The notes beneath the pieces were generated by a model. It had not been told where the DNA came from, ran no database searches, and was given only the letters and a program-made list of their open reading frames with translations. DNA of 64,000 bases from an uncultured Myxococcales bacterium. GTDB taxonomy: Bacteria > Myxococcota_A > Bradymonadia > UBA7976 > UBA1532. The position numbers and the translations under genes are program-made. This document shows, piece by piece, positions 51,327-64,000 of the stretch. The stretch lies in NCBI GenBank assembly GCA_903847385.1, contig CAINDO010000561.1, positions 10,328-74,327 on the forward strand, written 5' to 3'. Position 1 is the stretch's first letter, and each line of letters begins with the position of its first letter.

Positions 51327-51757
51327 TCACCCGAGCAGGTACTCCGCGGCGGGCAAGAGCGCCGTGCGCGCCCAGTAGCGGGCGAACTGCTCGACGGCGG
51401 CGGGGGCCACGTCCGGCGGCAGCGCGACGACGTTGGCCACGCCGAGGCCATGGCAGATGGTGACGGCGTCCGGATCGTCCGGATGCCCGACCACCACCCG
51501 CGGCACGCAGCGCCACACCGGCGCCCGTTCGAGGAGACGGAGCAGCGCCCAGTCGTCGGCGCGCGCCGCCTCGACGGGCACCACCAGCAACTGCGGCAGG
51601 CCCCGAACCTCGGGCATCGCGCCCGTTCGGCGCCAGGTGTCCGCCTGCGCCTCGGCGACGAGCTCGACCGCCATGCCGTGCGAGGCGAGCTGGGCGGTCA
51701 GCGGGGCGCGCCAGGGCGCGGCCTCGGCCGCGATCAACCAGGTCGTTCGACCCGCGC

Positions 51758-51761
<4 letters not shown>
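51327..51761 (-). CDS. hypothetical protein, possible degenerate receiver-like (pseudo-REC) domain
   Basis: 144 aa. ATGA overlap with the pilin gene stop. Alternating beta/alpha hydrophobic pattern ('TWLIAAEAA', '[19 protein letters not shown]', '[10 protein letters not shown]') reminiscent of the CheY fold, without the canonical DD...D...T...K residues. Confidence 0.4.
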
Positions 51762-52342
<581 letters not shown>

Positions 52343-52654: not shown

Positions 52655-53293
52655 TCACCACCAGAACGTCGCGCCGATCCCGGCAAACTGATCGAAGACG
52701 CCGAACTGCGAGGTCTTCTTCGGGAGGCCCCCGGCGACGGGCCCGCTGTCGGTGCCGGCGGCGGCGATGGCCTCGGCGCTGACCTCGGGCTGCGGGGTGG
52801 GCTGCTTGCCCGCAAAGACGTTGCCGTCGTCACTGGCGAGCGCGAAGCGGATGCCGGACTCGAAGTGGAAGGAGAAGTGCTCGTCGGCGAACCAGTAGAG
52901 GCGGATCGGCAGGTCGAACGCGATGGAGGTCGCGTTCTTGGTCTGCGGGTTGCCGCTGGAGTCCGGCTTGTCCTGGACCGTGGTCAGGCCGAAGTTGAAG
53001 CGACCGCCGGCCGACAGCGCGGCCTTCTCGGCCCGAAGCGCGAAGAAGTGCGCGCCGAGGCCGAGGTCGAAGTTCGTGAAGGCGTCGCCCTTGTCCGGGT
53101 TGGTCACGCTGAAGCCGAGACCGCCCTCGATGACCAGGTTGCCGACGCCGTAGCCGAAGGCCGCGTTGGCGTTGCCGCCCGCGATGGGCGCCGAGATGGA
53201 GATCCCCTTCTTGCCGTCCACCAGATCGCTGGCCTGGGCCGCGCCGGCCGCGAGCGCCGTGACCACGCCGGCCACCACACCGAGATGCTTCAT
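52655..53293 (-). CDS. small outer-membrane beta-barrel protein (OmpA-like TM / OMP_b-brl family)
   Basis: ATG 53293 with GAGGAG SD. Signal peptide 'MKHLGVVAGVVTALAAGAAQA'. Alternating aromatic/Gly beta-strands, C-terminal '...GIGATFWW'. Confidence 0.7.
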   Translation of the reverse strand: MKHLGVVAGVVTALAAGAAQASDLVDGKKGISISAPIAGGNANAAFGYGVGNLVIEGGLGFSVTNPDKGDAFTNFDLGLGAHFFALRAEKAALSAGGRFNFGLTTVQDKPDSSGNPQTKNATSIAFDLPIRLYWFADEHFSFHFESGIRFALASDDGNVFAGKQPTPQPEVSAEAIAAAGTDSGPVAGGLPKKTSQFGVFDQFAGIGATFWW

Positions 53294-53553
53294 CGTCCTG
53301 TTCTCCTCTTCGAGGGGCACACCCGTCGGGCGGGCGCCGCCGGTTCAGGGCAAAGGCCCGAAACATGACGCACAGCAGCCGACATCGACTGCAATGCACT
53401 ACATACCACCACAATGTAAGCGCAGCGGACGGACCGCGCAAATCTCCGCCCTTCTTTTTTTTTCGAACCGGCCGCCCCATCGACGCGCATCCATGGGAAA
53501 ATCGCCGCGACGCTCCCTCCCCGCCCGCAGACAGAAGAACACGCCCCCCCGAG

Positions 53554-54531
53554 ATGGAGATCCTTCGACACTTTCGCGATCTCGCGCCCGCCCAGGCCGG
53601 CACGGCGCTCACGATCGGCAACTTCGACGGCGTCCACCGCGGCCATCGCGCCCTGGTCGCCCGCGTCAAGGCCGCCGCCGAGGCGCGCGGTCTCTCGGCC
53701 GGCGTGCTGACGTTCGAGCCGCACCCGGCCCGATTCCTGGGCGGCCGCGCGCCGCCGCCCCTGCTCTCGACGCGCGCGGACAAGCGGCGCCTCCTCGCCG
53801 GCCTCGGCGTCGACTTCCTGATCGAGCAACCGTTCGACGCCGACTGGGCGAGCCTGACCCCGGAGCGGTTCGTGTCCGAGGTCCTGCTCGAGGGCCTCCG
53901 CTGTCGTCACCTCGTGGTCGGCTACGACTTCGTATTCGGCGCGCGGCGTGCGGGCACCGTGGACACGCTGCGCATCGCCGCCGACGCCCACGGCTTCACC
54001 GTCGAGGTCGTCTCCGCGCTGGCGCCCGAGGGACAGGCCGTGGCCTCGAGTTCGCGCATTCGCGCCGCGGTGCAGGCGGGCGAGTTCCCCGTGGCGACGA
54101 CGCTGCTGGGGCGTCCGTATCATTTACATGGCCGCGTGGTCGCCGGAGCGCAACGCGGGCGCCAGATCGGGTTCCCCACCGCGAACCTGCAGGGTGACAA
54201 CGAGCTGCTGCCCCCGCCCGGGGTCTACGCGGGCTGGCTGGACTGGGGCGAGGGCCAGCGCGCCGCCGCGATCAGCGTGGGTGACAATCCCACCTTCGGC
54301 GACACCGGCTTCACCGTCGAGGCCCACGTGCTGGCCGAGGCCATCGCGCCCGGCGCGGACCTCTACGGCCGGGAGTGCCACCTCTCGTTCGCCGCGCGGC
54401 TGCGCGGAATGATCCGGTTCTCGGGCCCGAACGCCCTGGCGGACCTCATCGCGGCCATCGGCGCCGACGTGGAGGCCACTCGGGCCCTGCTCGCCACGCT
54501 CTCCCCACCCCCGTCGCTGCTCGGTCCGTGA
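53554..54531 (+). CDS. ribF: bifunctional riboflavin kinase / FAD synthetase
   Basis: 'GNFDGVHRGHRAL' (H/G-x-G-H), 'GRPY...G.V..G...GR..GFPTAN' riboflavin kinase motifs. ATG 53554 preferred over the track's upstream start. Confidence 0.9.
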   Translation: MEILRHFRDLAPAQAGTALTIGNFDGVHRGHRALVARVKAAAEARGLSAGVLTFEPHPARFLGGRAPPPLLSTRADKRRLLAGLGVDFLIEQPFDADWASLTPERFVSEVLLEGLRCRHLVVGYDFVFGARRAGTVDTLRIAADAHGFTVEVVSALAPEGQAVASSSRIRAAVQAGEFPVATTLLGRPYHLHGRVVAGAQRGRQIGFPTANLQGDNELLPPPGVYAGWLDWGEGQRAAAISVGDNPTFGDTGFTVEAHVLAEAIAPGADLYGRECHLSFAARLRGMIRFSGPNALADLIAAIGADVEATRALLATLSPPPSLLGP

Positions 54532-55385
54532 CCCCCGGCCCGCCGCGCTGGCGCTTCGCGCTCGTGGGCTCCCCCGTGGCCCACAGCCGATCGCCGGACC
54601 TCTTCGCCGCGCTCGCGGCCGGCGCGGGGACGACCTGCGACTACACCCTCGCGGACATCTCCGGCCCGGCCCTCGACGCCTGGTGGTCCGGCCCGGCCCG
54701 GGAGCTGCACGGGTTCAATGTCACGGTTCCCCACAAGACGACGGCCGCGGCCCGCTGCACCGCGCTCAGCGGGCCGGCCGCGCGGATCGGCGCCGTCAAC
54801 GCCGTGCGCCTGGAGCCCGACCGGGGCACGACCGGCACGAACACGGACGCGGCCGGTTTCGATCTGACCCTCGGCGACGCCGCGTTCGAGCGCGCGGTCG
54901 TCCTCGGCGCGGGCGGCGCCGCGAGGGCCGTCGTGGACGTGCTGCTCGGCCGGGGTGTGGCTCGGGTCCGCCTGGTGAACCGGTCCCCCGCGCGCGCCGC
55001 CGAGCTCGTCGCGTCCCGGTCGGCTTCCGAGCGTGCGCGCGTCTCGACGACGCCCTGGTCACACCTCGCCGACGCGCTCGATGGTGCGGATCTCGTCGTC
55101 CAGACCACTTCGGCGGCGCTGTCGGCGCCCGAGGCCCTCGCCACGCTCCCCTGGGAAAGCACGACCGCCAGCGCCCTCGCCGTGGATCTCGTCTACCGCC
55201 CGCGGCGCACCGCCTTCCTGCTCGGCGCCGCGCGGGGCGGTCGCCGGACCGCGGACGGTCTGACCATGCTGGCCGGTCAGGCCGCCGCCGCGTTCGACTT
55301 CTTCCGGGGCGTCGAATCGGACCCGCAGGTGTTCTCCGGGGTCGCCCGCGGGCTGGCCGACAGTCTCCGCGCGGGCGTCGATTGA
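54528..55385 (+). CDS. aroE: shikimate dehydrogenase
   Basis: 'FALVGSPVAHSRSPDLF', 'GFNVTVPHK', 'GAGGAARAV'. GTG 54528 overlaps the ribF stop. Confidence 0.85.
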   Translation: MTPGPPRWRFALVGSPVAHSRSPDLFAALAAGAGTTCDYTLADISGPALDAWWSGPARELHGFNVTVPHKTTAAARCTALSGPAARIGAVNAVRLEPDRGTTGTNTDAAGFDLTLGDAAFERAVVLGAGGAARAVVDVLLGRGVARVRLVNRSPARAAELVASRSASERARVSTTPWSHLADALDGADLVVQTTSAALSAPEALATLPWESTTASALAVDLVYRPRRTAFLLGAARGGRRTADGLTMLAGQAAAAFDFFRGVESDPQVFSGVARGLADSLRAGVD

Positions 55386-55460: not shown

Positions 55461-57158
55461 ATGTCCGACCATCGTCTCGGCGAGCTCCTGATTCGAGAGA
55501 ACCTGATCACCCTCGTCCAGCTCAAGGACGCGGATGAGACGCGACGCAAGACGGGCGAGAAGCTCGGCTACACGCTGACCAAGCTGGGATTCATCGGCGA
55601 GCGCGAGCTCACGAGCTTCCTGAGCAAGCAGTACGGCGTCCCCTCGATCAACCTGAACGAGTTCGAGATCGACGCGGAGGTCATCAAGCTGATCCCGCGC
55701 GAGATGGCGCAGCAACATCAGGTCATCCCGGTGCAGCGCGCCGGCAACGCCCTGATCGTCGCCATGGCCGATCCGTCGAACCTCCACGCCATCGACGACG
55801 TGAAGTTCCTCACGGGCTACAACATCGAGCCCGTCGTCGCGAGCGAGGAGGCCATCCGCAACGCCATCGAGCGGTACTACTCGCAGAAGTCCAACATCGC
55901 CGCGTTGATGGAGGAGTTCAGCGAAGAGGACGTCGAGGTCGCCGAGCAGGAGCAGGACGAGGACGTCCTCGACCTCGAGCGCTCCAGCGAGGAGGCCCCC
56001 GTCGTCCGCCTCGTGAACATGGTCCTCGTCGAGGCCATCAAGCGCGGCGCCTCCGACATCCACATCGAGCCCTACGAGAAGTCGTTCCGCGTCCGCTACC
56101 GCATCGACGGCGTGCTCTACGAGATCCTCAACCCGCCGATGAAGCTGCGCAACGCGATCATCAGCCGCGTGAAGATCATGTCCAACATGGACATCGCCGA
56201 GCGCCGCCTCCCGCAGGACGGCCGCATCAAGATCAAGCTCGGCGGCGGCCGCGAGATGGACTTCCGCGTCAGCGTGATGCCCACGCTGTTCGGCGAGAAG
56301 ATCGTGTTGCGTCTGCTCGACAAGGGCAACCTGCAGCTCGACATGACGAAGCTCGGCTTCGAGGAGCACACCCTCAGCCGCTTCAAAGAGGCCATTCACA
56401 AGCCCTACGGCATGGTGCTCGTCACCGGCCCCACGGGCTCCGGCAAGACGACGACGCTGTACTCGGCCCTCTCCGAGCTCAACAAGACGAGCGAGAACAT
56501 CTCGACCGCCGAGGATCCCGTGGAGTTCAACCTCCCCGGCATCAACCAGTGTCAGATGAACGACTCGATCGGCCTGAACTTCGCCGCCGCGCTCCGCTGC
56601 TTCCTGCGGCAGGACCCCGACATCATCATGGTGGGCGAGATCCGCGACTTCGAGACGGCGGAAATCGGCGTCAAGGCCGCCTTGACGGGCCACTTGGTGC
56701 TCTCGACGCTCCACACGAACGACGCGCCGTCCACGGTGCATCGTCTCCTGAACATGGGCGTCGAGCCCTTTCTCGTCACGGCCTCGGTGAACGCCATCGT
56801 CGCCCAGCGTCTGGCCCGCAAGATCTGCAACGAGTGCAAAGAGGTCCTGAAGCTGCCCCCCCAGGCGCTCATCGATCTCGGGGTGCCGCCGGACCGGGCC
56901 GCCAAGGCCACCGTGTACAAGGGCAACGGCTGCCGCAACTGCAACGACACCGGCTACAAGGGCCGCGTGGCGCTTTACGAGGTCATGGTGCTCGACGACG
57001 AGCTCAAGGACTTCATCCTCCAGGGTGTCTCGAGCGTCGAGCTCAAGCGCGAGGCCGTGCGCCTCGGCATGAAGACGCTGCGTCAGGCCGCTTTGACCAA
57101 GCTGCTCGATGGCGTCACCACCACCGCCGAGGTCGTCCGAAACTCCGCCGCCGACTGA
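55461..57158 (+). CDS. pilB: type IV pilus assembly ATPase PilB (GspE family, N-terminal MshEN/T2SSE_N domain)
   Basis: Walker A 'GPTGSGKTTT', Asp box, His box. Tetracysteine 'CNECKE...CRNCNDTGYKGR'. Confidence 0.95.
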   Translation: MSDHRLGELLIRENLITLVQLKDADETRRKTGEKLGYTLTKLGFIGERELTSFLSKQYGVPSINLNEFEIDAEVIKLIPREMAQQHQVIPVQRAGNALIVAMADPSNLHAIDDVKFLTGYNIEPVVASEEAIRNAIERYYSQKSNIAALMEEFSEEDVEVAEQEQDEDVLDLERSSEEAPVVRLVNMVLVEAIKRGASDIHIEPYEKSFRVRYRIDGVLYEILNPPMKLRNAIISRVKIMSNMDIAERRLPQDGRIKIKLGGGREMDFRVSVMPTLFGEKIVLRLLDKGNLQLDMTKLGFEEHTLSRFKEAIHKPYGMVLVTGPTGSGKTTTLYSALSELNKTSENISTAEDPVEFNLPGINQCQMNDSIGLNFAAALRCFLRQDPDIIMVGEIRDFETAEIGVKAALTGHLVLSTLHTNDAPSTVHRLLNMGVEPFLVTASVNAIVAQRLARKICNECKEVLKLPPQALIDLGVPPDRAAKATVYKGNGCRNCNDTGYKGRVALYEVMVLDDELKDFILQGVSSVELKREAVRLGMKTLRQAALTKLLDGVTTTAEVVRNSAAD

Positions 57159-57165
57159 GTCCTCC

Positions 57166-58248
57166 ATGGCCAATCTGCACCAGCTCCTGAAGGTCATGGT
57201 CGAGAAGGGGGCGAGCGACCTGCACATCACGTGCGGCTCCCCGCCCCAGCTCCGGATCGATGGCCACCTCATCCCCCTCAAGACGCCGCCCCTGAGCCGC
57301 GAGGACACGCAGCAGCTCTGCTACTCGTTCCTCACGGAGTCGCAGAAGCACAAGTTCGAGGAGACCAACGAGCTCGACCTCAGCTTCGGCGTGAAGGGCA
57401 TGAGCCGATTCCGCGCGAACCTGTTCATGCAGCGCGGCGCCGTGTCGGCCACGTTCCGAGTCATCCCGATGAAGATCCACACGTTCGAGGAGCTCGGACT
57501 CCCGAACACCATCGGCGACATGACCAACAAGACCAAGGGTCTCATCCTGGTCACGGGCCCCACGGGCTCCGGCAAGTCCACCACGCTCGCCGCGATGGTG
57601 GACAAGATCAACGCCGAGAAGCACTACCACATCCTCACCATCGAGGACCCGATCGAGTACCTGCATCCCCACAAGAGCTCGATCGTGAACCAGCGCGAGA
57701 TCGGCAGCGACACGGTCGATTTCAAGACCGCGCTGAAGTACGTGCTACGCCAGGATCCGGACGTGGTGCTGGTGGGCGAGATGCGCGACCTCGAGACGGT
57801 CGAGGCCGCCCTGACCATCAGCGAGACGGGCCACTTGTGCATGGCCACGCTGCACACGAACGGCGCCGTGCAGGCGATCAACCGCATCATCGACCTCTTC
57901 CCGCCCCACCAGCAGGGACAGATCCGGTCGCAGTTGAGCTTCACGCTCGAGGCCGTCGTCGCGCAGCAGCTCATCATGCGCTCCTCCGGTGTGGGCCGGG
58001 TGCTGGCCTGCGAGGTCATGATCCCCACGCCGGCCATTCGCAATCTCATCCGCGAGGACAAGATCCACCAGATCTACAGCCAGATGCAGGTCGGCCAGAC
58101 CCGCTTCGGCATGCAGACCATGAATCAGTCCCTCCTGGGCCTGTACCAGCGGGGCGAGATCACGCTCGAGGACGCGCTGGCTCACTCCAACGACGTCGAC
58201 GAGATGCGCACCATGATCGCCGGCGGAAACACGGCCAGCGCGCGCTGA
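57166..58248 (+). CDS. pilT: type IV pilus retraction ATPase PilT
   Basis: 'MANLHQLLKVMVEKGASDLHI', Walker A 'GPTGSGKSTT', 'AIRNLIRE' PilT motif. 361 aa. Confidence 0.95.
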   Translation: MANLHQLLKVMVEKGASDLHITCGSPPQLRIDGHLIPLKTPPLSREDTQQLCYSFLTESQKHKFEETNELDLSFGVKGMSRFRANLFMQRGAVSATFRVIPMKIHTFEELGLPNTIGDMTNKTKGLILVTGPTGSGKSTTLAAMVDKINAEKHYHILTIEDPIEYLHPHKSSIVNQREIGSDTVDFKTALKYVLRQDPDVVLVGEMRDLETVEAALTISETGHLCMATLHTNGAVQAINRIIDLFPPHQQGQIRSQLSFTLEAVVAQQLIMRSSGVGRVLACEVMIPTPAIRNLIREDKIHQIYSQMQVGQTRFGMQTMNQSLLGLYQRGEITLEDALAHSNDVDEMRTMIAGGNTASAR

Positions 58249-58264
58249 GCGAGATCCCCGACCG

Positions 58265-59923
58265 ATGATCAAGGCATTCAACGCGTGGCCCGAGTGGGCC
58301 CGGTACGGGTTCGTCTTCGCTTTCGCGCTGCTGTTCTGGAGCCCCAGCCTCTTCAACGAGTTCGCCTGGGACGACACGAACAACCTCGTCGACTCGGACC
58401 GACTGCGCGGCTGGGCCGCGTTCGCCGAGTGTTTCCGGCACGACGCGATGTGGTCCGCCCGAATGAACGCCGCGGCCATCGGCACCTACCGGCCGATCTC
58501 CCTGGCGTCGTTCGTCGTGGACTACCAGCTCTTCGGCGGCTCGGCGATCTCGTACCACTTCACCAGCCTGTTCTGGCACGCCCTGGCCTGCGTGGTGGTC
58601 TTCGCCGTGCTACGCCGCTTCATGGGGCTCGTCGAGTCGCTCGTTGCGACGTGCCTCTTCTGCGTCGTCCCCGTGAACGCCGAGGCCGTGGCCTGGGTGA
58701 ACGGCCGCTCCGAGATCTTCGCCCTGCTCTTCGGAGGTCTGGGCGTCGTCGTCGCCACGAGCCCGCGGCTGCCCTGGTTCGTGCGCCTCGCCGGCACCGC
58801 GCCCCTGCTGCTTCTGGGCATGCTCGGCAAGGAGACCGGGGTGATCTTCTGTGCCGTCGCCGTGCTGCTCGGCACCGAGGCGCGCCATCGCCGCGTCGAG
58901 GCGCCCCGTCTGTGGTTGCGCAGCCTGGACCTGACGGCGCTGCTCTCCGGCGTGCTCGCGCTGGCCGGTTACCTGTGGATCCGCCACCTGGTCTTCGGCG
59001 GCAATCCCCTCCCCGGCGCCACGGAGAAGCTCTCCAGCAGCGCCGACCTGATGGGCATCCTGGCGCAGGCCGCCTCGATCGTGTGGAAGTGTTTCGCCAC
59101 GGTGGTCATCCCCGATCGCATCTCCGTCGGCTACTTGTACAACTGGGCCCAGGCCCTGACGCGAACGGATCTGATCGTCGCCTGGAGCGCCCTCGCCGTC
59201 GTGGCGGCGGGGCTCGTGTTCGCCTGGCTGCGCGGTCATCGCCTCGCGATCCTGATGCTGGCGTGGTGGGGCTTCTCCATCGCGCCGGTGCTCATCCTGG
59301 TCGGGCGCGACTGGCCGGGGCTCGCGCGCTGGCTCTACATGGGCGGCCCGGGGCTCGTCGCCGCCGGCGCGCTGCTGCTGCGCCTCGTCCCGTGGCGCAC
59401 GGTCACGACCTTCGTCGGCGCGGCCTACGGCCTCGTCTGGTCCGTGCAGGCGCAGCGCAGCATCGAGGTCTGGCACGACTCGGGGACACTCTTCGAGCGC
59501 ATGATCATCGAGGAGCCGGGCGAGCGGTTCGGGTACCTGAGCCTCTCCTGGTATTACCTGCGCATCGCCGACTACCCCAACTCCGAGAAGATGGCGCGCA
59601 AGGTGCTCGAGCTCGGCCCGCGGGGCCACGATCCGCTGCCCTTCCTGGCGGCGGCGTTGGCCGCCCAGGACAAGTGCGACGAGGCCCGCAAGACCGTCTA
59701 TGAGCCGACGCCGATGCCGACACGCGCCGCCTGGATGATGTTCTCGGTGGGCGCCTGTTACGAGCGCGCCGGCCGACCGGCGGACGCCCTGCCGCTCTAC
59801 AAGGACTGCGTCGCTGGCGACAAGGCCTGCGAGTCGAAGGCCGCGACGCTGAGCGCGAGCCTGGCCAGCGCTGCCCCCGAGAGCGCCGAGCCGAGCGCGC
59901 CGGCGACGGTCGCACCTCGCTGA
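58265..59923 (+). CDS. GT-C fold membrane glycosyltransferase, PMT/TMTC(DUF1736)-like, with C-terminal TPR domain
   Basis: ~11 TM helices. N-terminal loop 'FNEFAWDDTNNLVDSD' (DD/DE-type motif of PMT/ArnT-like GT-C enzymes). C-terminal soluble TPR-like repeats ('YLSLSWYYLRIADYPNSEKMARKVLELGP...'). Confidence 0.7.
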   Translation: MIKAFNAWPEWARYGFVFAFALLFWSPSLFNEFAWDDTNNLVDSDRLRGWAAFAECFRHDAMWSARMNAAAIGTYRPISLASFVVDYQLFGGSAISYHFTSLFWHALACVVVFAVLRRFMGLVESLVATCLFCVVPVNAEAVAWVNGRSEIFALLFGGLGVVVATSPRLPWFVRLAGTAPLLLLGMLGKETGVIFCAVAVLLGTEARHRRVEAPRLWLRSLDLTALLSGVLALAGYLWIRHLVFGGNPLPGATEKLSSSADLMGILAQAASIVWKCFATVVIPDRISVGYLYNWAQALTRTDLIVAWSALAVVAAGLVFAWLRGHRLAILMLAWWGFSIAPVLILVGRDWPGLARWLYMGGPGLVAAGALLLRLVPWRTVTTFVGAAYGLVWSVQAQRSIEVWHDSGTLFERMIIEEPGERFGYLSLSWYYLRIADYPNSEKMARKVLELGPRGHDPLPFLAAALAAQDKCDEARKTVYEPTPMPTRAAWMMFSVGACYERAGRPADALPLYKDCVAGDKACESKAATLSASLASAAPESAEPSAPATVAPR

Positions 59924-60026
59924 ACGGCCGAATTCCGTCCCCCCCCAGGCCGCAGGTTGCGGTCCCCGATGCATGGGCATAACATCCCACGGGTTCGGTC
60001 GGGATCGGTCGGTGGAGGAGGAGCGC

Positions 60027-61235
<1,209 letters not shown>

Positions 61236-61247
61236 CGGCCGCCCAGC

Positions 61248-62978
61248 GTGTTCCGCCGCTCCTCCGACGCCCCGCCCGACCCCGCCCCTCCGGCCGTCCC
61301 CGAGATCGTCAGCAAGATCCAGTGGCTGATGTTCTTCCGGGTGATCATGGTCACCGTCCTGCTCGGGTCGACCCTGATCGTCAACGTCAAGGACGCCGAC
61401 CTGCTGTCGGATCCCGGGACCCTGACCGTCCTCGGGCTCATCGTCGGCACCTACCTGCTGACGATCGCCTACGCGCTGTTGCTCCCGCGGCTGAAGCAGC
61501 ACCGGCCGTTCGCGTACGTGCAGCTCGTCGGCGACCTGCTGACGTCGTTCGTGCTGATCCTCCTCACGGGGGGCGTGGAGAGCGTCTTCACGTTCATGTT
61601 CGCGCTCACCGTGATGAACGGCGCGATCCTGCTGTTCCGGCGCGGCGCGATCACGATGGCGCTGCTCTCCGCGGTGCTCATCGGCCTGATCGTCGTCCGC
61701 GACTGGGCGCACATGCCGGGGGCCGGCGCGTCGCCGAGCGCCAGCCGCGGCCTCGTGTTGTGGGCGATGACCAACGTGAGCGCGGTGCTCCTCGTGGCGC
61801 TGCTGGCCGGGTATCTCAGCGACCAGCTCAGCTTCGCCGGGCAGCGCATCCAATCGCAGAGCGAGGACCTGGAGCAGCTGCGAACGCTCAACCAGCACAT
61901 CATCACGAGCCTGCAGTCGGGGCTCGTCAGCCACACGCTCGACGGCCGGGTCATCTTCTTCAACCAGGCGGCGGAGCGCATCACCGGCCTCCGGGCGGAC
62001 GACGTCCTCTACCAGGACGTGCGCACGATCTTTCCGCGTCTCGAGCCCGACGCCCCGCCCGGCGGGGCGGCGGCCACGGGGCTGAACCGCTGGGAGGAGA
62101 CCTTCGAGACCCCCGACGGACAGGTGCGCATCCTGGGCATGAGCCGCTCTCCCCTGCTGGACTCGGGCGGCGCGAGCCGTGGCGCCGTCGTCGTGTTCCA
62201 GGACCTCACCCCGATGCGGACGCTGGAGCAGCAGATTCGACGCAGCGAGAAGTTCGCCGCCATCGGCAAGATGGCCGCGGGCATCGCCCACGAGATCCGC
62301 AACCCGCTCGCCAGCATCAGCGGCAGCATCCAGATGCTCAAGCGGGGCGCCAACCTGGAGAAGACCGACAGCCGACTGATGGAGATCGTCCTGCGTGAGG
62401 TCGAGCGCCTCAACGCGTTGATCACGGACTTCCTCCGATTCGCCCGGCCGGCGCCGCCACAGCTCGAACGCACGCACCTCGGCGCCCTGCTGAACGAGGT
62501 GATCGAGGTCTTCCGCTACATGCAGAGTCAGGGTGAGGGCGGTCCGCGCTACGACGTCGACCTGATGGTCGGAGACTCGGTCATCGTTCAGGCCGATCCC
62601 CGGCAGCTCAAACAGGTCGTCTGGAACCTCTTGAACAACGCCGTGGACGCCATGCCGAGCGGCGGCCTGATCCAGATGCAGGCCGTCGTGACCGGGACGT
62701 CCGGCGCCGACGACGACGGCGTCGAGCTGCGGCTGTCGGACACGGGGATCGGCATCACCGCCGAGAACCTGTCGCGCGTGTTCGACCCGTTCTTCAGCAC
62801 CAAACCACGCGGGAGCGGCCTCGGCCTCGCGCTCGTCCACCGGATCGTGGAGGAGCACGGCGGCACAATCCACGTGGAGAGCGAGCCGGGCAAGGGCACC
62901 ACCATGATCATCCGTTTCCCGGCCCCGGCGAACGCTCCGGTCATCCGGCAGCCGTCGCCCTCGGAGATGCTCACATGA
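61248..62978 (+). CDS. pilS: sensor histidine kinase PilS-like (polytopic membrane domain, PAS, HisKA, HATPase_c)
   Basis: Six N-terminal TM helices, PAS-like region, H-box 'AAGIAHEIRNPLASI', N/G boxes 'NLLNNAVDAM...DTGIGI...GSGLGLALVHRIV'. GTG 61248. Confidence 0.85.
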   Translation: MFRRSSDAPPDPAPPAVPEIVSKIQWLMFFRVIMVTVLLGSTLIVNVKDADLLSDPGTLTVLGLIVGTYLLTIAYALLLPRLKQHRPFAYVQLVGDLLTSFVLILLTGGVESVFTFMFALTVMNGAILLFRRGAITMALLSAVLIGLIVVRDWAHMPGAGASPSASRGLVLWAMTNVSAVLLVALLAGYLSDQLSFAGQRIQSQSEDLEQLRTLNQHIITSLQSGLVSHTLDGRVIFFNQAAERITGLRADDVLYQDVRTIFPRLEPDAPPGGAAATGLNRWEETFETPDGQVRILGMSRSPLLDSGGASRGAVVVFQDLTPMRTLEQQIRRSEKFAAIGKMAAGIAHEIRNPLASISGSIQMLKRGANLEKTDSRLMEIVLREVERLNALITDFLRFARPAPPQLERTHLGALLNEVIEVFRYMQSQGEGGPRYDVDLMVGDSVIVQADPRQLKQVVWNLLNNAVDAMPSGGLIQMQAVVTGTSGADDDGVELRLSDTGIGITAENLSRVFDPFFSTKPRGSGLGLALVHRIVEEHGGTIHVESEPGKGTTMIIRFPAPANAPVIRQPSPSEMLT

Positions 62979-64000
62979 GTCGAATCCTCGTCGTCGACGA
63001 CGAACTCTCGCTGCGGGAGATGCTCGAAATCTTCCTGAGCCAGGAGGGCCACGAGGTCCTCACGGCGGCCGACGGCGCCAAGGCCATCGCGATCCTGACG
63101 GAGGAGGACAACATCGACCTCGTCATCACGGATCTGCGCATGCCCGGCGCCCACGGGATGGTGGTGCTGGACCGCTGCCGCGAGCTGCACCCCAACACGC
63201 CCGTGGTGGTCATGACCGCCTTCGCATCCCATCAGACCGCCACCGAGGCGATGAAGATGGGGGCGTACGACTACTTCTCCAAACCGTTCGAGCTCGACGA
63301 GATCAACCAGACGGTGGAGCGAGCGCTGGAGCGGCGGCGCCTCGTCGTCGAGAGCCGGCGCCTGAAGGAGACGCTCCAGTCGGAGAGCGCGCTGCGGGCC
63401 ATCGTGGGCAACAGCCGCGCGATCCAGCAGGTGTTCGACATCGTGCGTCGCGTGGCCAAGACGCGCACCAACGTCCTCGTGCTCGGCGAAAGTGGCACCG
63501 GCAAGGAGCTCATCGCCCGGGCGCTCCACGACCAGAGCGAGCGACGCGGCGGGCCCTTCGTGGTCATCAACTGCGGCGCCGTGCCCGAGAACCTGCTCGA
63601 GTCGGAGTTCTTCGGCCACAAGCGCGGCTCGTTCACCGGCGCCAACACGGACAAAGAGGGCCTCTTCAAGGCGGCCAACGGCGGCACGCTGTTCCTCGAC
63701 GAGGTCGGCGAGCTCCCTCTGAGCATGCAGGTCAAGCTGTTGCGGGTGCTGCAAGAGCGTCGGGTGAAGCCCGTCGGCGACCTCCGCGAGATCCCCATCG
63801 ACGTCCGCGTCATCTCCGCCACGAACCGGAACCTCGAGGCCGAGGTCAAGGCCGGGCGATTCCGCGAGGACCTCTACTACCGGCTGAACGTGATCAGCGT
63901 GCAGTTGCCCGCGCTCCGCGACCGACCGGGGGACATCCCGCTGCTCGCCTACCACTTCCTGCGGCAATACGCGGAAGAGCAGGGCAAACACATCGCGGAC
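62975..64000 (+). CDS. pilR: sigma54-dependent response regulator PilR (NtrC family), 3'-truncated by window end
   Basis: REC 'ILVVDDE...DLVITDLRMPG'. AAA+ sigma54-interaction domain 'VLVLGESGTGKELIARALH', 'GAFTGA'-type 'GSFTGA', 'ESELFGH'-like 'ESEFFGH'. ATGA overlap with the pilS stop. Not in the ORF track because no stop codon falls before the window end. Confidence 0.9.
   Translation, partial: MSRILVVDDELSLREMLEIFLSQEGHEVLTAADGAKAIAILTEEDNIDLVITDLRMPGAHGMVVLDRCRELHPNTPVVVMTAFASHQTATEAMKMGAYDYFSKPFELDEINQTVERALERRRLVVESRRLKETLQSESALRAIVGNSRAIQQVFDIVRRVAKTRTNVLVLGESGTGKELIARALHDQSERRGGPFVVINCGAVPENLLESEFFGHKRGSFTGANTDKEGLFKAANGGTLFLDEVGELPLSMQVKLLRVLQERRVKPVGDLREIPIDVRVISATNRNLEAEVKAGRFREDLYYRLNVISVQLPALRDRPGDIPLLAYHFLRQYAEEQGKHIAD

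Follow-up and report, generated by a model that had tools for sequence, protein, structure and literature searches.

Several described systems resemble the locus analysed here. TfpW of Pseudomonas aeruginosa group IV strains is a pilin D-arabinofuranosyltransferase (bioRxiv 10.1101/2020.04.19.049825; Kus et al. 2008, cited in PMC11841053). Its gene belongs to the pilus locus, and the enzyme transfers a polyprenyl-phosphate-linked sugar to Ser/Thr of the pilin, and is best modelled on ArnT (bioRxiv 10.1101/2020.04.19.049825). PglL/TfpO (Neisseria, P. aeruginosa group I) also O-glycosylate pilins in the periplasm and are sometimes encoded beside pilA, but these are unrelated Wzy_C-type enzymes using preassembled undecaprenyl-diphosphate oligosaccharides, and TfpO and TfpW have been termed unrelated (PMC11841053). 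For the TMTC proteins, seven motifs (M1-M7) around the donor/metal site have been defined, among which M4 supplies the ligands for phosphate and metal in models of TMTC (PMC7801869). In three-component systems, a monosaccharide is first linked to undecaprenyl phosphate by a GT2 enzyme; a flippase then carries it across, and the sugar is transferred outside the cytoplasm by a GT-C enzyme (PMC11127046, PMC12041528). GtrA/GtrB/GtrC, ArnC/ArnE-F/ArnT, the GT136 pentofuranose systems (PMC11127046) and PgfS/PgfE/PgfM1-M2 (PMC12041528) follow the logic proposed for the genes described below, the sugar being determined by an epimerase or SDR, and streptococcal Pgf modifies Ser/Thr of surface proteins (PMC12041528).

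The window, which is the whole stretch of 64,000 nucleotides analysed, contains a pil cluster on the + strand. It comprises pilB (extension ATPase; 55461-57158; T2SSE 1.5e-144, MshEN 4.5e-30), pilT (retraction ATPase, 360 aa; 57166-58248; T2SSE 3.5e-50), pilC (platform protein; 60027-61235; T2SSF 1e-66), the sensor kinase gene pilS (61248-62978; 6TM_PilS, PAS, HisKA and HATPase_c) and a partial pilR that continues past the window end (62975-64000; 84% to L001 PilR by tblastn). The pilT start at MANLHQ agrees with 360-aa orthologues, and a ribosome-binding site, GGAGGAGGAG, read from the sequence, precedes pilC. Between pilT and pilC lies a gene for a GT-C glycosyltransferase with a C-terminal TPR domain (58265-59923, + strand; 552 aa, ATG to TGA), separated from pilT by 16 bp (58249-58264) and from pilC by 103 bp (59924-60026). 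The initial annotation had given this position and both gaps exactly, and had correctly described pilB-pilT-pilC-pilS-pilR as otherwise contiguous and co-directional. When both gaps were scanned for promoters and terminators, no sites were found, the counts not exceeding those of shuffles. Since the gene sits between pilT and pilC and both gaps are devoid of a terminator, its co-transcription with the pilus motor genes is suggested.

The 58265-59923 ORF is a genuine gene under constraint. GC3 was 0.94 in its frame, while the two remaining frames gave 0.65 and 0.51, and comparison with a 93%-identical copy (L032) gave a dN/dS of 0.073; taken separately, the membrane core had 0.078 and the TPR domain 0.044. 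The DNA, at about 70% GC, is rich in long ORFs, among them overlapping ones of 472, 530 and 1122 aa, but the frame given here is the real one. The GC content of the gene is 0.70-0.71 versus 0.64-0.65 for pilB, pilT and pilC, and the rest of the window is similar to the GT-C gene. A recent horizontal insertion was considered but seems unlikely; the GC content is typical of the window, and the gene is vertically conserved within its own clade.

The 552-aa query reached none of the GT-C models in Pfam/NCBIfam, its Pfam matches being sub-threshold TPR matches only. PDB sequence searches, whether with the protein or with the profile at full length, returned only TPR proteins, and the membrane-core profile gave no match at E<=10, so that the fold had to be shown structurally. 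The AlphaFold2 model (pLDDT 91.9) has PglB, ArnT and AglB as its best Foldseek matches, and this predicted structure shows a GT-C fold, the polytopic core being structurally like solved GT-C enzymes. The membrane core (residues 1-405; 58265-59479, + strand) has 11 predicted TM helices and a cytoplasmic N terminus, based on the helices of the model, hydropathy and loop charges; Arg and Lys are found in the short loops predicted to be cytoplasmic from the model and hydropathy. As the number of TM helices is odd, the C terminus with the TPR domain is placed outside, and the conservation of two of its cysteines, C471 and C498, in 36 of the 37 family sequences supports this periplasmic location. 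The predicted periplasmic TPR-like domain (residues 406-536; 59480-59872, + strand) consists of eight helices in the model. TPR_12 matched the protein at E 2.4e-6, which is under the Pfam cut-off, and consensus-TPR PDB chains matched the tail at E 1.5e-6, so the C-terminal TPR repeats proposed earlier were recovered.

We then compared the conserved residues with the TMTC motifs, counting over 37 sequences down to 28% identity. First, F33-A-W-D36-D37 in periplasmic loop 1 (58361-58375, + strand) corresponds to M1, the GT-C catalytic DD, and is located directly after TM1 (residues 10-30). F33 and D36 are present in 37/37 and D37 in 36/37 sequences. The protein therefore carries, in its first loop outside the cytoplasm, the acidic DxD/DD/DE motif that GT-C enzymes have after TM1, and this is the PMT/ArnT-type N-terminal loop motif that the initial annotation had recognised. 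Second, T74-Y75-R76-P77 (58484-58495, + strand) includes the YRP part of M2 (SHKSYRP), with R76 and P77 in all 37 sequences and T74 and Y75 in 36. Third, N146-G-R148-S-E150 (58700-58714, + strand) follows HP-x-N-x-E and corresponds to M3 (RxD, here RxE); G147 and P136 are found in 37/37, and R148, S149, E150 and E140 in 36/37. Fourth, K189-E190-T191 (58829-58837, + strand) corresponds to M4 (KET), in which K189 and E190 are invariant over the 37 sequences and residue 191 is T or S in every one. Finally, W350-P-G-x-x-R355-W-L-Y358-x-G-x-P-G between TM9 and TM10 (59312-59353, + strand) contains the RxxY of M7, with W350, P351, G352, R355, W356, G360, P362 and G363 in 37/37 and Y358 in 36/37. M5 (DW), M6 (PxxP) and the H/K of M2 were not evident in the 37 sequences, only W294 of M5 and P341 of M6 being conserved. 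The earlier claim of a PMT_2-like TM core plus TPR tail as in TMTC finds partial support in the residues of M1-M4 and M7.

Pfam PMT_2 (PF13231) did not match the query, although it matched 9 of the 37 family members at E<=0.01, and its cut-off of 26.1 was passed by the orthologues P0009 (syntenic; 27.4) and P0018 (34.0). TMTC_DUF1736 matched neither the query at E<=0.1 nor any of the 37 family members at E<=0.01; a remote homologue, P0077, which was matched by the membrane-core profile at E 6e-24, passes TMTC_DUF1736, scoring 31.5 bits where the cut-off is 27. Wzy_C, the model of PglL/TfpO, gave no match in the query at E<=0.1.

TPR proteins, for example pilotins, take part in pilus assembly, and the query stays below the Pfam GT-C thresholds, as would suit a catalytically inactive membrane TPR scaffold that aids assembly. 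Such a role is hardly credible, since all expected catalytic and donor-binding residues of GT-C enzymes are invariant or nearly so over the 37 sequences, and since the gene is accompanied by genes for a GT2 of donor synthesis and for a flippase-like protein.

By prediction, the protein shares with the eukaryotic protein O-mannosyltransferases TMTC1-4 (GT-C/PMT clan; PMC7801869) the 11 TM helices and the extracytoplasmic C-terminal TPR domain, and M1 (DD), M2 (YRP), M3 (RxD/E), M4 (KET) and M7 (RxxY) lie in the same loops. However, the TPR domain is much shorter here, with about four repeats from the eight modelled helices, and the TMTC1-4 donor and acceptor are dolichyl-phosphate-mannose and cadherin, while an undecaprenyl-phosphate sugar and pilin are proposed here. 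With yeast Pmt4 and Pmt1/Pmt2, the sequence identity is about 11%; the query has no Pfam PMT match, and the MIR domain of the PMT luminal loop is absent here, a C-terminal TPR domain being present instead. TfpW, compared by description, carries DDX in its first periplasmic loop, spans the membrane with about 11 helices and ends in a periplasmic TPR domain, features that are also present or predicted in our protein. Among the differences, TfpW has 646 aa and is encoded immediately downstream of pilA, whereas the present protein has 552 aa and is encoded between pilT and pilC. Its donor is supplied by a PRPP-derived D-Araf pathway of the mycobacterial type, whereas the partners here, as seen in relatives, are a GtrB/ArnC-type GT2, an MprF-like flippase-like protein and an SDR, and no DprE-type or PRPP-transferase genes were found among the neighbours of the family loci. 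The proline-rich chain-length motif of TfpW, YX6PFX7P, is absent from the 552-aa protein, which makes single-sugar transfer likelier than polymerisation. TfpW did not occur by name among 105 profile matches. By analogy, TfpW is an existing functional precedent in which a GT-C enzyme with a TPR domain glycosylates pilin, one that the initial annotation had left out. Most likely, the pil-operon protein is TfpW-like in function and human TMTC-like in its active-site motifs.

The searches yielded 36 full-length homologues (28-93% identity) with 23 invariant residues. The subfamily was confined to Myxococcota/Bradymonadia MAGs, all of its carriers being uncultured. When the membrane core was searched alone, 35 cluster representatives were obtained at E<=1e-30, a number that rose to 21,657 with the limit set to E<=1e-3, and TPR tails were present in 10/10 of the scanned relatives found by the core only. 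Thirteen of the 22 genome loci of the subfamily lie in pil clusters, mainly in three arrangements, where X is the GT-C gene: pilT-X-pilC, X-GT2-flippase convergent on pilA-pilA-TPR296-SDR, and X upstream of pilB. TPR296 is a conserved membrane-anchored TPR-like protein of 296 aa. L024 shows a fourth, divergent layout. In an NJ tree, the proteins encoded in pilT-X-pilC form one clade, in agreement with the insertion proposed earlier, and in the sister clade pilT and pilC are mostly contiguous, the GT-C gene being at the pilin end of the cluster, in a convergent operon about 3.5-4.5 kb from the pilin genes. The GT-C gene moved between pilT and pilC while the GT2 and flippase-like genes remained next to the pilins. 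This relocation into pilB-pilT-pilC, with the donor genes left by the pilins, shows selection for co-expression, and the pil linkage was kept across at least two relocations. Part of the conserved gene order in related MAGs may be owed to common descent and not to function. In a MAG of the Longimicrobiales, a distant homologue is found in the order pilS-pilR-GT2-(GT-C/TPR)x2-pilin-pilin. The other 9 of the 22 genome loci, and 3 of the 4 remote relatives looked up, have no pil genes nearby, indicating that the wider GT-C/TPR family has other acceptors.

The candidate donor genes lie beyond the window, and we infer them from syntenic relatives whose PilB is 82-96% identical. In four loci (L001, L003, L008 and L009), pilR is followed by two pilin genes, by the genes for the TPR-like protein and an SDR, and by the flippase-like/GT2 pair. 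By synteny with L008 and L009, this set is expected within about 7 kb past the window end, with the flippase-like and GT2 genes on the opposite strand. The SDR gene is immediately downstream of pilA-pilA-TPR296 and co-directional with it. The GT2, the flippase-like protein and the SDR co-occur with the GT-C subfamily, the GT2 and flippase-like genes accompanying it in at least 11 loci. The partner GT2 (244 aa) matches ArnC (1e-14), DPMS (5e-9) and GtrB (3e-7), and the MprF-type flippase-like protein matches TIGR00374 above the cut-off. The best match of the SDR is PDB 8vr2 at 1e-107, followed by UDP-glucuronate decarboxylase at 4e-47; the 8vr2 entry has no functional name, and a literature search on it found no paper mentioning 8vr2. 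Unlike GtrC, ArnT, GT136 and YfhO, the GT-C enzymes of known three-component systems, which have no TPR tails, the present protein has one, and the flippase-like protein is of the MprF type rather than GtrA, SMR or MATE. The known acceptors, namely O antigen, lipid A, streptococcal adhesins and intrinsically disordered regions, also differ from the pilin proposed here.

These partners recall the Arn and Gtr pathways (ArnC-like GT2, flippase-like protein, ArnA/UXS-like SDR), ArnT is among the structural neighbours, and three-component GT-C systems decorating O antigen are widespread. The enzyme might accordingly modify a non-protein periplasmic acceptor (lipid A/LPS, exopolysaccharide or some other glycan, for example), in the manner of ArnT or GtrABC, the pil link being inherited gene order or a looser tie, for instance to a pilus-interacting polysaccharide. 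We regard this as distinctly improbable. The TPR tail is a protein-binding module and is more constrained than the core (dN/dS 0.044, as above), the motifs are closer to those of the protein O-mannosyltransferase-type TMTC than to ArnT, the pil linkage survived relocation, and the genes neighbouring the family loci included neither an ArnB aminotransferase nor an ArnD deformylase nor a formyltransferase domain of the ArnA type.

Concerning the donor, acceptor, sugar and catalysis, we infer that the GT-C/TPR protein is an inverting periplasmic pilin Ser/Thr O-glycosyltransferase that uses an undecaprenyl-phosphate single-sugar donor before pilus assembly, with a probability of roughly 0.55. The SDR, a putative sugar-nucleotide enzyme, would make the specific sugar, the 244-aa ArnC/DPMS/GtrB-like GT2 would load it onto undecaprenyl phosphate, and the MprF-type protein would carry the undecaprenyl-phosphate sugar to the periplasmic leaflet. 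The GT-C/TPR enzyme would then transfer the single sugar, with inversion, to pilin Ser/Thr prior to assembly. D36/D37 in loop 1 may act on the acceptor, K189/E190, R148/E150, Y75-R76-P77 and R355/Y358 may bind metal, phosphate and sugar, and the TPR domain would dock the protein acceptor. The earlier suggestion of pilin O-glycosylation, which was drawn from the sequence, gains strength as a candidate from the lipid-linked sugar donor genes beside pilins in relatives and from the second phylum. More tentatively, at somewhat short of even odds, a bacterial TMTC-like GT-C/TPR lineage across Myxococcota and the Longimicrobiales MAG may be dedicated to type IV pilins, with a four-gene module of SDR, GT2, MprF-like flippase and GT-C/TPR.

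As to the pilin acceptor, the window contains a pilin-like gene of 194 aa upstream of the pil cluster (51758-52342, - strand; N_methyl 1.5e-9), which is kept at the same position in L001-L003 and L008 and shares about 53% identity with the second of the two pilin genes that follow pilR. It is one of three candidate acceptors, the major pilins being more likely the two genes downstream of pilR, outside the window. The Ser/Thr-rich C-terminal segment that the initial annotation had quoted from a PilA-like protein is indeed present in this N_methyl protein, but its Ser/Thr are not conserved: no strictly conserved Ser/Thr was found in the segment across the orthologues compared. We therefore rejected this variable segment as evidence for glycosylation. 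The FP-x(3-10)-TP stretch in the pilin alpha-beta loop is more conserved, yet it also occurs in pilins away from the module.

That a conserved acceptor residue was not found in the pilins would also agree with a periplasmic protein O-glycosyltransferase whose acceptors are minor pilins, PilQ, alignment proteins, TPR296 or many envelope proteins. The fold, motifs and TPR domain fit such acceptors equally, the wider GT-C/TPR family is very large and mostly unlinked to pil, and the streptococcal GT-A/GT-C systems modify many membrane-associated proteins. We nevertheless consider it rather unlikely, since the module adjoins the pilin genes, with the SDR gene directly following pilA-pilA-TPR296, since in Longimicrobiales pilR is separated from the pilin genes by the GT2 gene and two GT-C/TPR genes, and since TfpW, with the same architecture, targets pilins.

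Glycosylation of pilins alters the surface chemistry of the pilus. For Pseudomonas, this modification gives protection from phages that are specific for pili (PMC11841053). Our literature searches found no report of pilin glycosylation in Myxococcota and no paper tying Bradymonadales type IV pili to glycosyltransferases, and none is reported for the pilins in the paper on the M. xanthus pilus structure. The pil link gives a testable function to a large, essentially uncharacterised bacterial GT-C/TPR family (more than 21,000 cluster representatives). If the pilin-dedicated lineage and its four-gene module hold true, this would be, per the searches made, the first TMTC-type enzyme from bacteria for which a natural protein substrate is defined, and a tractable model for the choice of folded acceptors by the TPR domain of TMTC-type O-glycosyltransferases. 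As substrate recognition by the human TMTC enzymes is poorly understood, the pil-linked enzyme would also offer a bacterial model for them.

The GT-C/TPR gene studied here (X) is an open reading frame at 58265-59923 (+) that runs from ATG to TGA and encodes 552 aa. It lies between pilT (57166-58248, +; T2SSE, 360 aa) and pilC (60027-61235, +; T2SSF), with pilB (55461-57158, +; T2SSE and MshEN) upstream, and pilS (61248-62978, +; 6TM_PilS/PAS/HisKA) and pilR (62975 onward, +, leaving the window) downstream. The spacers of 16 bp and 103 bp reported in the initial annotation are exact, and neither gap contains a terminator-like site. While pilC has a strong ribosome-binding site (GGAGGAGGAG), an obvious one was not found for X. 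The DNA is ~70% GC and long open reading frames are common there, several of them overlapping X. The GC3 value of the X frame was 0.94, and those of the other two frames were 0.65 and 0.51. Our search gave 36 homologues over the full length, 28-93% identical, and 23 residues are invariant among them. When X was compared with the 93%-identical copy of locus L032, which likewise lies between pilT and pilC, dN/dS was 0.073 overall, with values of 0.078 in the membrane core and 0.044 in the TPR domain. The AlphaFold2 model calculated from the alignment showed a mean pLDDT of 91.9 and a pTM of 0.89. Based on these observations, the X frame is the real one and X is a real gene under constraint; the polytopic 552-aa TPR protein described from the sequence is thereby confirmed. 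The GC content was 0.64-0.65 in pilB, pilT and pilC (window 55500-58500 and 60000-61500), compared with 0.70-0.71 in X (58500-60000) and 0.70-0.78 in the remaining region, and the strongly negative AT skew of X fits a hydrophobic membrane protein.

The Pfam scan of X gave TPR matches only, all sub-threshold, the NCBIfam scan gave nothing useful, and PDB sequence searches gave TPR proteins only, with nothing for the membrane core. When the model was searched with Foldseek, PglB, ArnT and AglB were top-ranked. Model helices, hydropathy and loop charges agree on a predicted topology of 11 TM helices with a cytoplasmic N terminus, a long periplasmic loop 1 (residues 31-93) and a second long periplasmic loop between TM7 and TM8 (residues 244-299). 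The TPR-like domain of eight helices (residues 406-536) comes after TM11 and is therefore placed in the periplasm. Two of its cysteines, C471 and C498, are kept in 36/37 sequences and may form a disulfide, as an oxidising compartment would allow. When the membrane core was searched by itself as a profile (A2), it matched ~50 close relatives at E<1e-87 and, beyond a gap, proteins of 500-700 aa at E 1e-30 to 1e-10, mostly with TPR Pfam matches. P0077, among the more distant matches, passes Pfam TMTC_DUF1736, and P0009 and P0018, syntenic orthologues of X, pass PMT_2. When the membrane core was run through phmmer exhaustively, the number of cluster representatives rose from 35 at E<=1e-30 to 1,886 at E<=1e-10 and to 21,657 at E<=1e-3. 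Ten of the more distant ones were scanned: every one has a TPR tail, and three of the ten pass PMT_2. Based on these profile, Pfam and phmmer links, X belongs to a small, discrete subfamily, itself part of a very large group of bacterial GT-C + TPR proteins of the TMTC/PMT_2 type.

In human TMTC1-4, the donor and metal site is surrounded by seven motifs, M1-M7 (Eisenhaber et al., PMC7801869), and we counted their conservation over 37 sequences of the X subfamily. M1 (DD) corresponds to D36-D37 in F-x-W-D-D (37/37 and 36/37), M2 (SHKSYRP) to T74-Y75-R76-P77 (R and P 37/37), M3 (RxD) to R148-S-E150, preceded by HP-x-N-x-E (36/37), M4 (KE(T/Q)xxT) to K189-E190-T/S191 (K and E 37/37), and M7 (ERxxY) to R355-W-L-Y358 within W-P-G-x-x-R-W-L-Y-x-G-x-P-G (R 37/37, Y 36/37). 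M5 (DW) and M6 (PxxP) are not evident, with W294 and P341, respectively, alone conserved. Loop by loop, the positions of the five recognisable motifs agree with the TMTC topology model, and X looks as if it works like a TMTC. Since X does not match the DUF1736 model and lacks two of the seven motifs, we did not file it as a TMTC member. A non-catalytic role of X seems very improbable.

Close relatives of X all come from uncultured Myxococcota, mostly MAGs labelled Bradymonadia or Myxococcales. Our survey by tblastn and gene calls on fetched loci revealed pil linkage in 13 of the 22 genome loci, in three main arrangements and a fourth, divergent one (L024). Arrangement A (the window, L001/L008, L002, L003/L004/L012, L009, L010, L011 and L032) has the order pilB-pilT-X-pilC-pilS-pilR-pilA1-pilA2-TPR296-SDR, followed by the flippase-like and GT2 genes, which are transcribed in the opposite direction. 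In arrangement B (L013, L014, L016, L018 and L021; truncated in L007 and L015), pilT and pilC are contiguous and an X-GT2-flippase operon is convergent on that end of the cluster which carries pilA-pilA-TPR296-SDR. In arrangement C, found in a Nannocystaceae MAG (L020), X is directly upstream of pilB. The arrangement-A proteins form one clade in the NJ tree, and its sister clade is mainly arrangement B. Most simply, X would have left the convergent donor operon once and entered the pilT-pilC spacer, while the GT2 and flippase-like genes stayed beside the pilins; the survey and the clade thus bear out the insertion initially proposed. Several pil loci carry the GT-C/TPR gene twice, including L010 (3263-6372, two tandem copies between pilT and pilC), L016 (10001-13814, copies flanking GT2) and L031 (4215-7938, the Longimicrobiales locus, in tandem); this may point to multiple acceptor sites or sugar linkages.

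The rest of the 22 loci, at 28-37% identity, show no pil linkage; L022, not counted as pil-linked, contains two pilin-like genes ~7 kb from X. Four remote family members were looked up, and three are in unrelated contexts. The fourth, in a Longimicrobiales MAG, lies in the order pilS-pilR-GT2-(GT-C/TPR)-(GT-C/TPR)-pilin-pilin, the two transferase genes being in tandem and both products having the loop-1 motif G-F-A-[YF]-D-D; the pil association therefore appears to recur outside Myxococcota. We favour X as a pilin glycosyltransferase, with a probability of roughly 0.55; action of X on a protein other than pilin is a less probable reading.

The partner genes sit beyond the window and were analysed in L008 and L009. 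The GT2 protein (244 aa) has catalytic-domain matches to ArnC (1e-14), the undecaprenyl-phosphate Ara4FN transferase, to archaeal dolichyl-phosphate-mannose synthase (5e-9) and to GtrB (3e-7), and its NCBIfam matches agree. The flippase-like membrane protein (306 aa) matches LPG_synthase_TM and scores above the cut-off of TIGR00374 'flippase-like domain'. The SDR (318 aa; L009 12093-13049, +) matches PDB 8vr2 at 1e-107 and human UDP-glucuronate decarboxylase at 4e-47; 8vr2, an 'NAD-dependent epimerase/dehydratase' without a specific name, is a far better match than any named enzyme. A literature search for 8vr2 found no mention of it, and its function, if learned, would predict the sugar of the module. 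TPR296 (296 aa; L008 17714-18604, +; L009 11206-12096, +), with orthologues in 12 loci, has a single N-terminal hydrophobic helix and weak TPR-like matches. In most loci its gene is flanked by the second pilin gene and the SDR gene, L016 having a different order; the protein may serve the glycosylation module as adaptor or acceptor.

Judged from these matches, GT2, the flippase-like protein and the SDR are, with X, probably parts of a three-component extracytoplasmic glycosylation route, as known from Gtr, Arn, the GT136 pentofuranose system (PMC11127046) and the streptococcal Pgf system (PMC12041528). The analysis establishes the gene and its constraint, the fold, the motifs, the TPR domain and the gene associations; for donor, sugar, acceptor and activity, we infer the following steps. 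An SDR-modified nucleotide sugar would be made in the cytoplasm and loaded onto undecaprenyl phosphate by GT2, the flippase-like protein would carry the lipid-linked sugar to the periplasmic leaflet, and X would transfer it to Ser/Thr of a TPR-held pilin before PilB/PilC-driven assembly. Transfer to a non-protein acceptor is unlikely in our estimate; pil-linked loci and partner genes support and extend the pilin glycosylation suggested in the initial annotation.

A precedent for a GT-C pilin glycosyltransferase already exists. TfpW of P. aeruginosa, whose gene is a neighbour of pilA, attaches D-arabinofuranose to Ser/Thr of the pilin; the enzyme is predicted to span the membrane 11 times, requires a DDX motif in its first periplasmic loop, and has a C-terminal TPR domain on the periplasmic side (bioRxiv 10.1101/2020.04.19.049825). 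Pilin glycosylation by TfpW/TfpO guards against pilus-specific phages (PMC11841053). TfpW is the closest functional precedent for X. X differs from TfpW in its TMTC-like motif set, its position between pilT and pilC, the lack of the YX6PFX7P motif, and a putative GtrB/ArnC-type donor route instead of mycobacterial-type D-Araf. The searchable literature contained no description of the X module in Myxococcota or Bradymonadales, and the M. xanthus pilus structure paper does not report pilin glycosylation. Our results support X as a putative TMTC-like GT-C pilin glycosyltransferase fed by a three-component lipid-sugar pathway, and its main value is a testable substrate for a very large, uncharacterised bacterial enzyme family.

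The acceptor is the weakest step of the proposed mechanism. In the Ser/Thr-rich pilin segment pointed out initially, the Ser/Thr residues differ from one orthologue to another. Better conserved is an FP-x(3-10)-TP stretch in the predicted alpha-beta loop, common to module-adjoining pilins (e.g. FPSTVAATPASAP). We regard it as a candidate O-glycosylation site, although pilins away from the module have it too and it is thus not specific to module-linked ones. Pilins with this stretch are encoded at L008 16386-17585 and window 51758-52342 (-). A 144-aa ORF (window 51327-51761, -) has a 4-bp overlap with the stop of the upstream pilin gene, is kept behind it in L001, L002 and L003 (132-151 aa), has no Pfam match, and may encode a pilin accessory protein. 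A 221-aa protein (window 52655-53320, -) without a Pfam match begins like a signal peptide, and its C terminus reads ...GATFWW; counterparts of about 180 aa adjoin the upstream pilin in L001-L004, and a small outer-membrane beta-barrel is a possible identity. A ribF-like gene (FAD synthetase/riboflavin kinase) and an aroE-like gene (shikimate dehydrogenase) (window 53365-55385, +) separate the upstream pilin from pilB and are kept at the same place in L001-L004, and housekeeping genes therefore interrupt the pil cluster.
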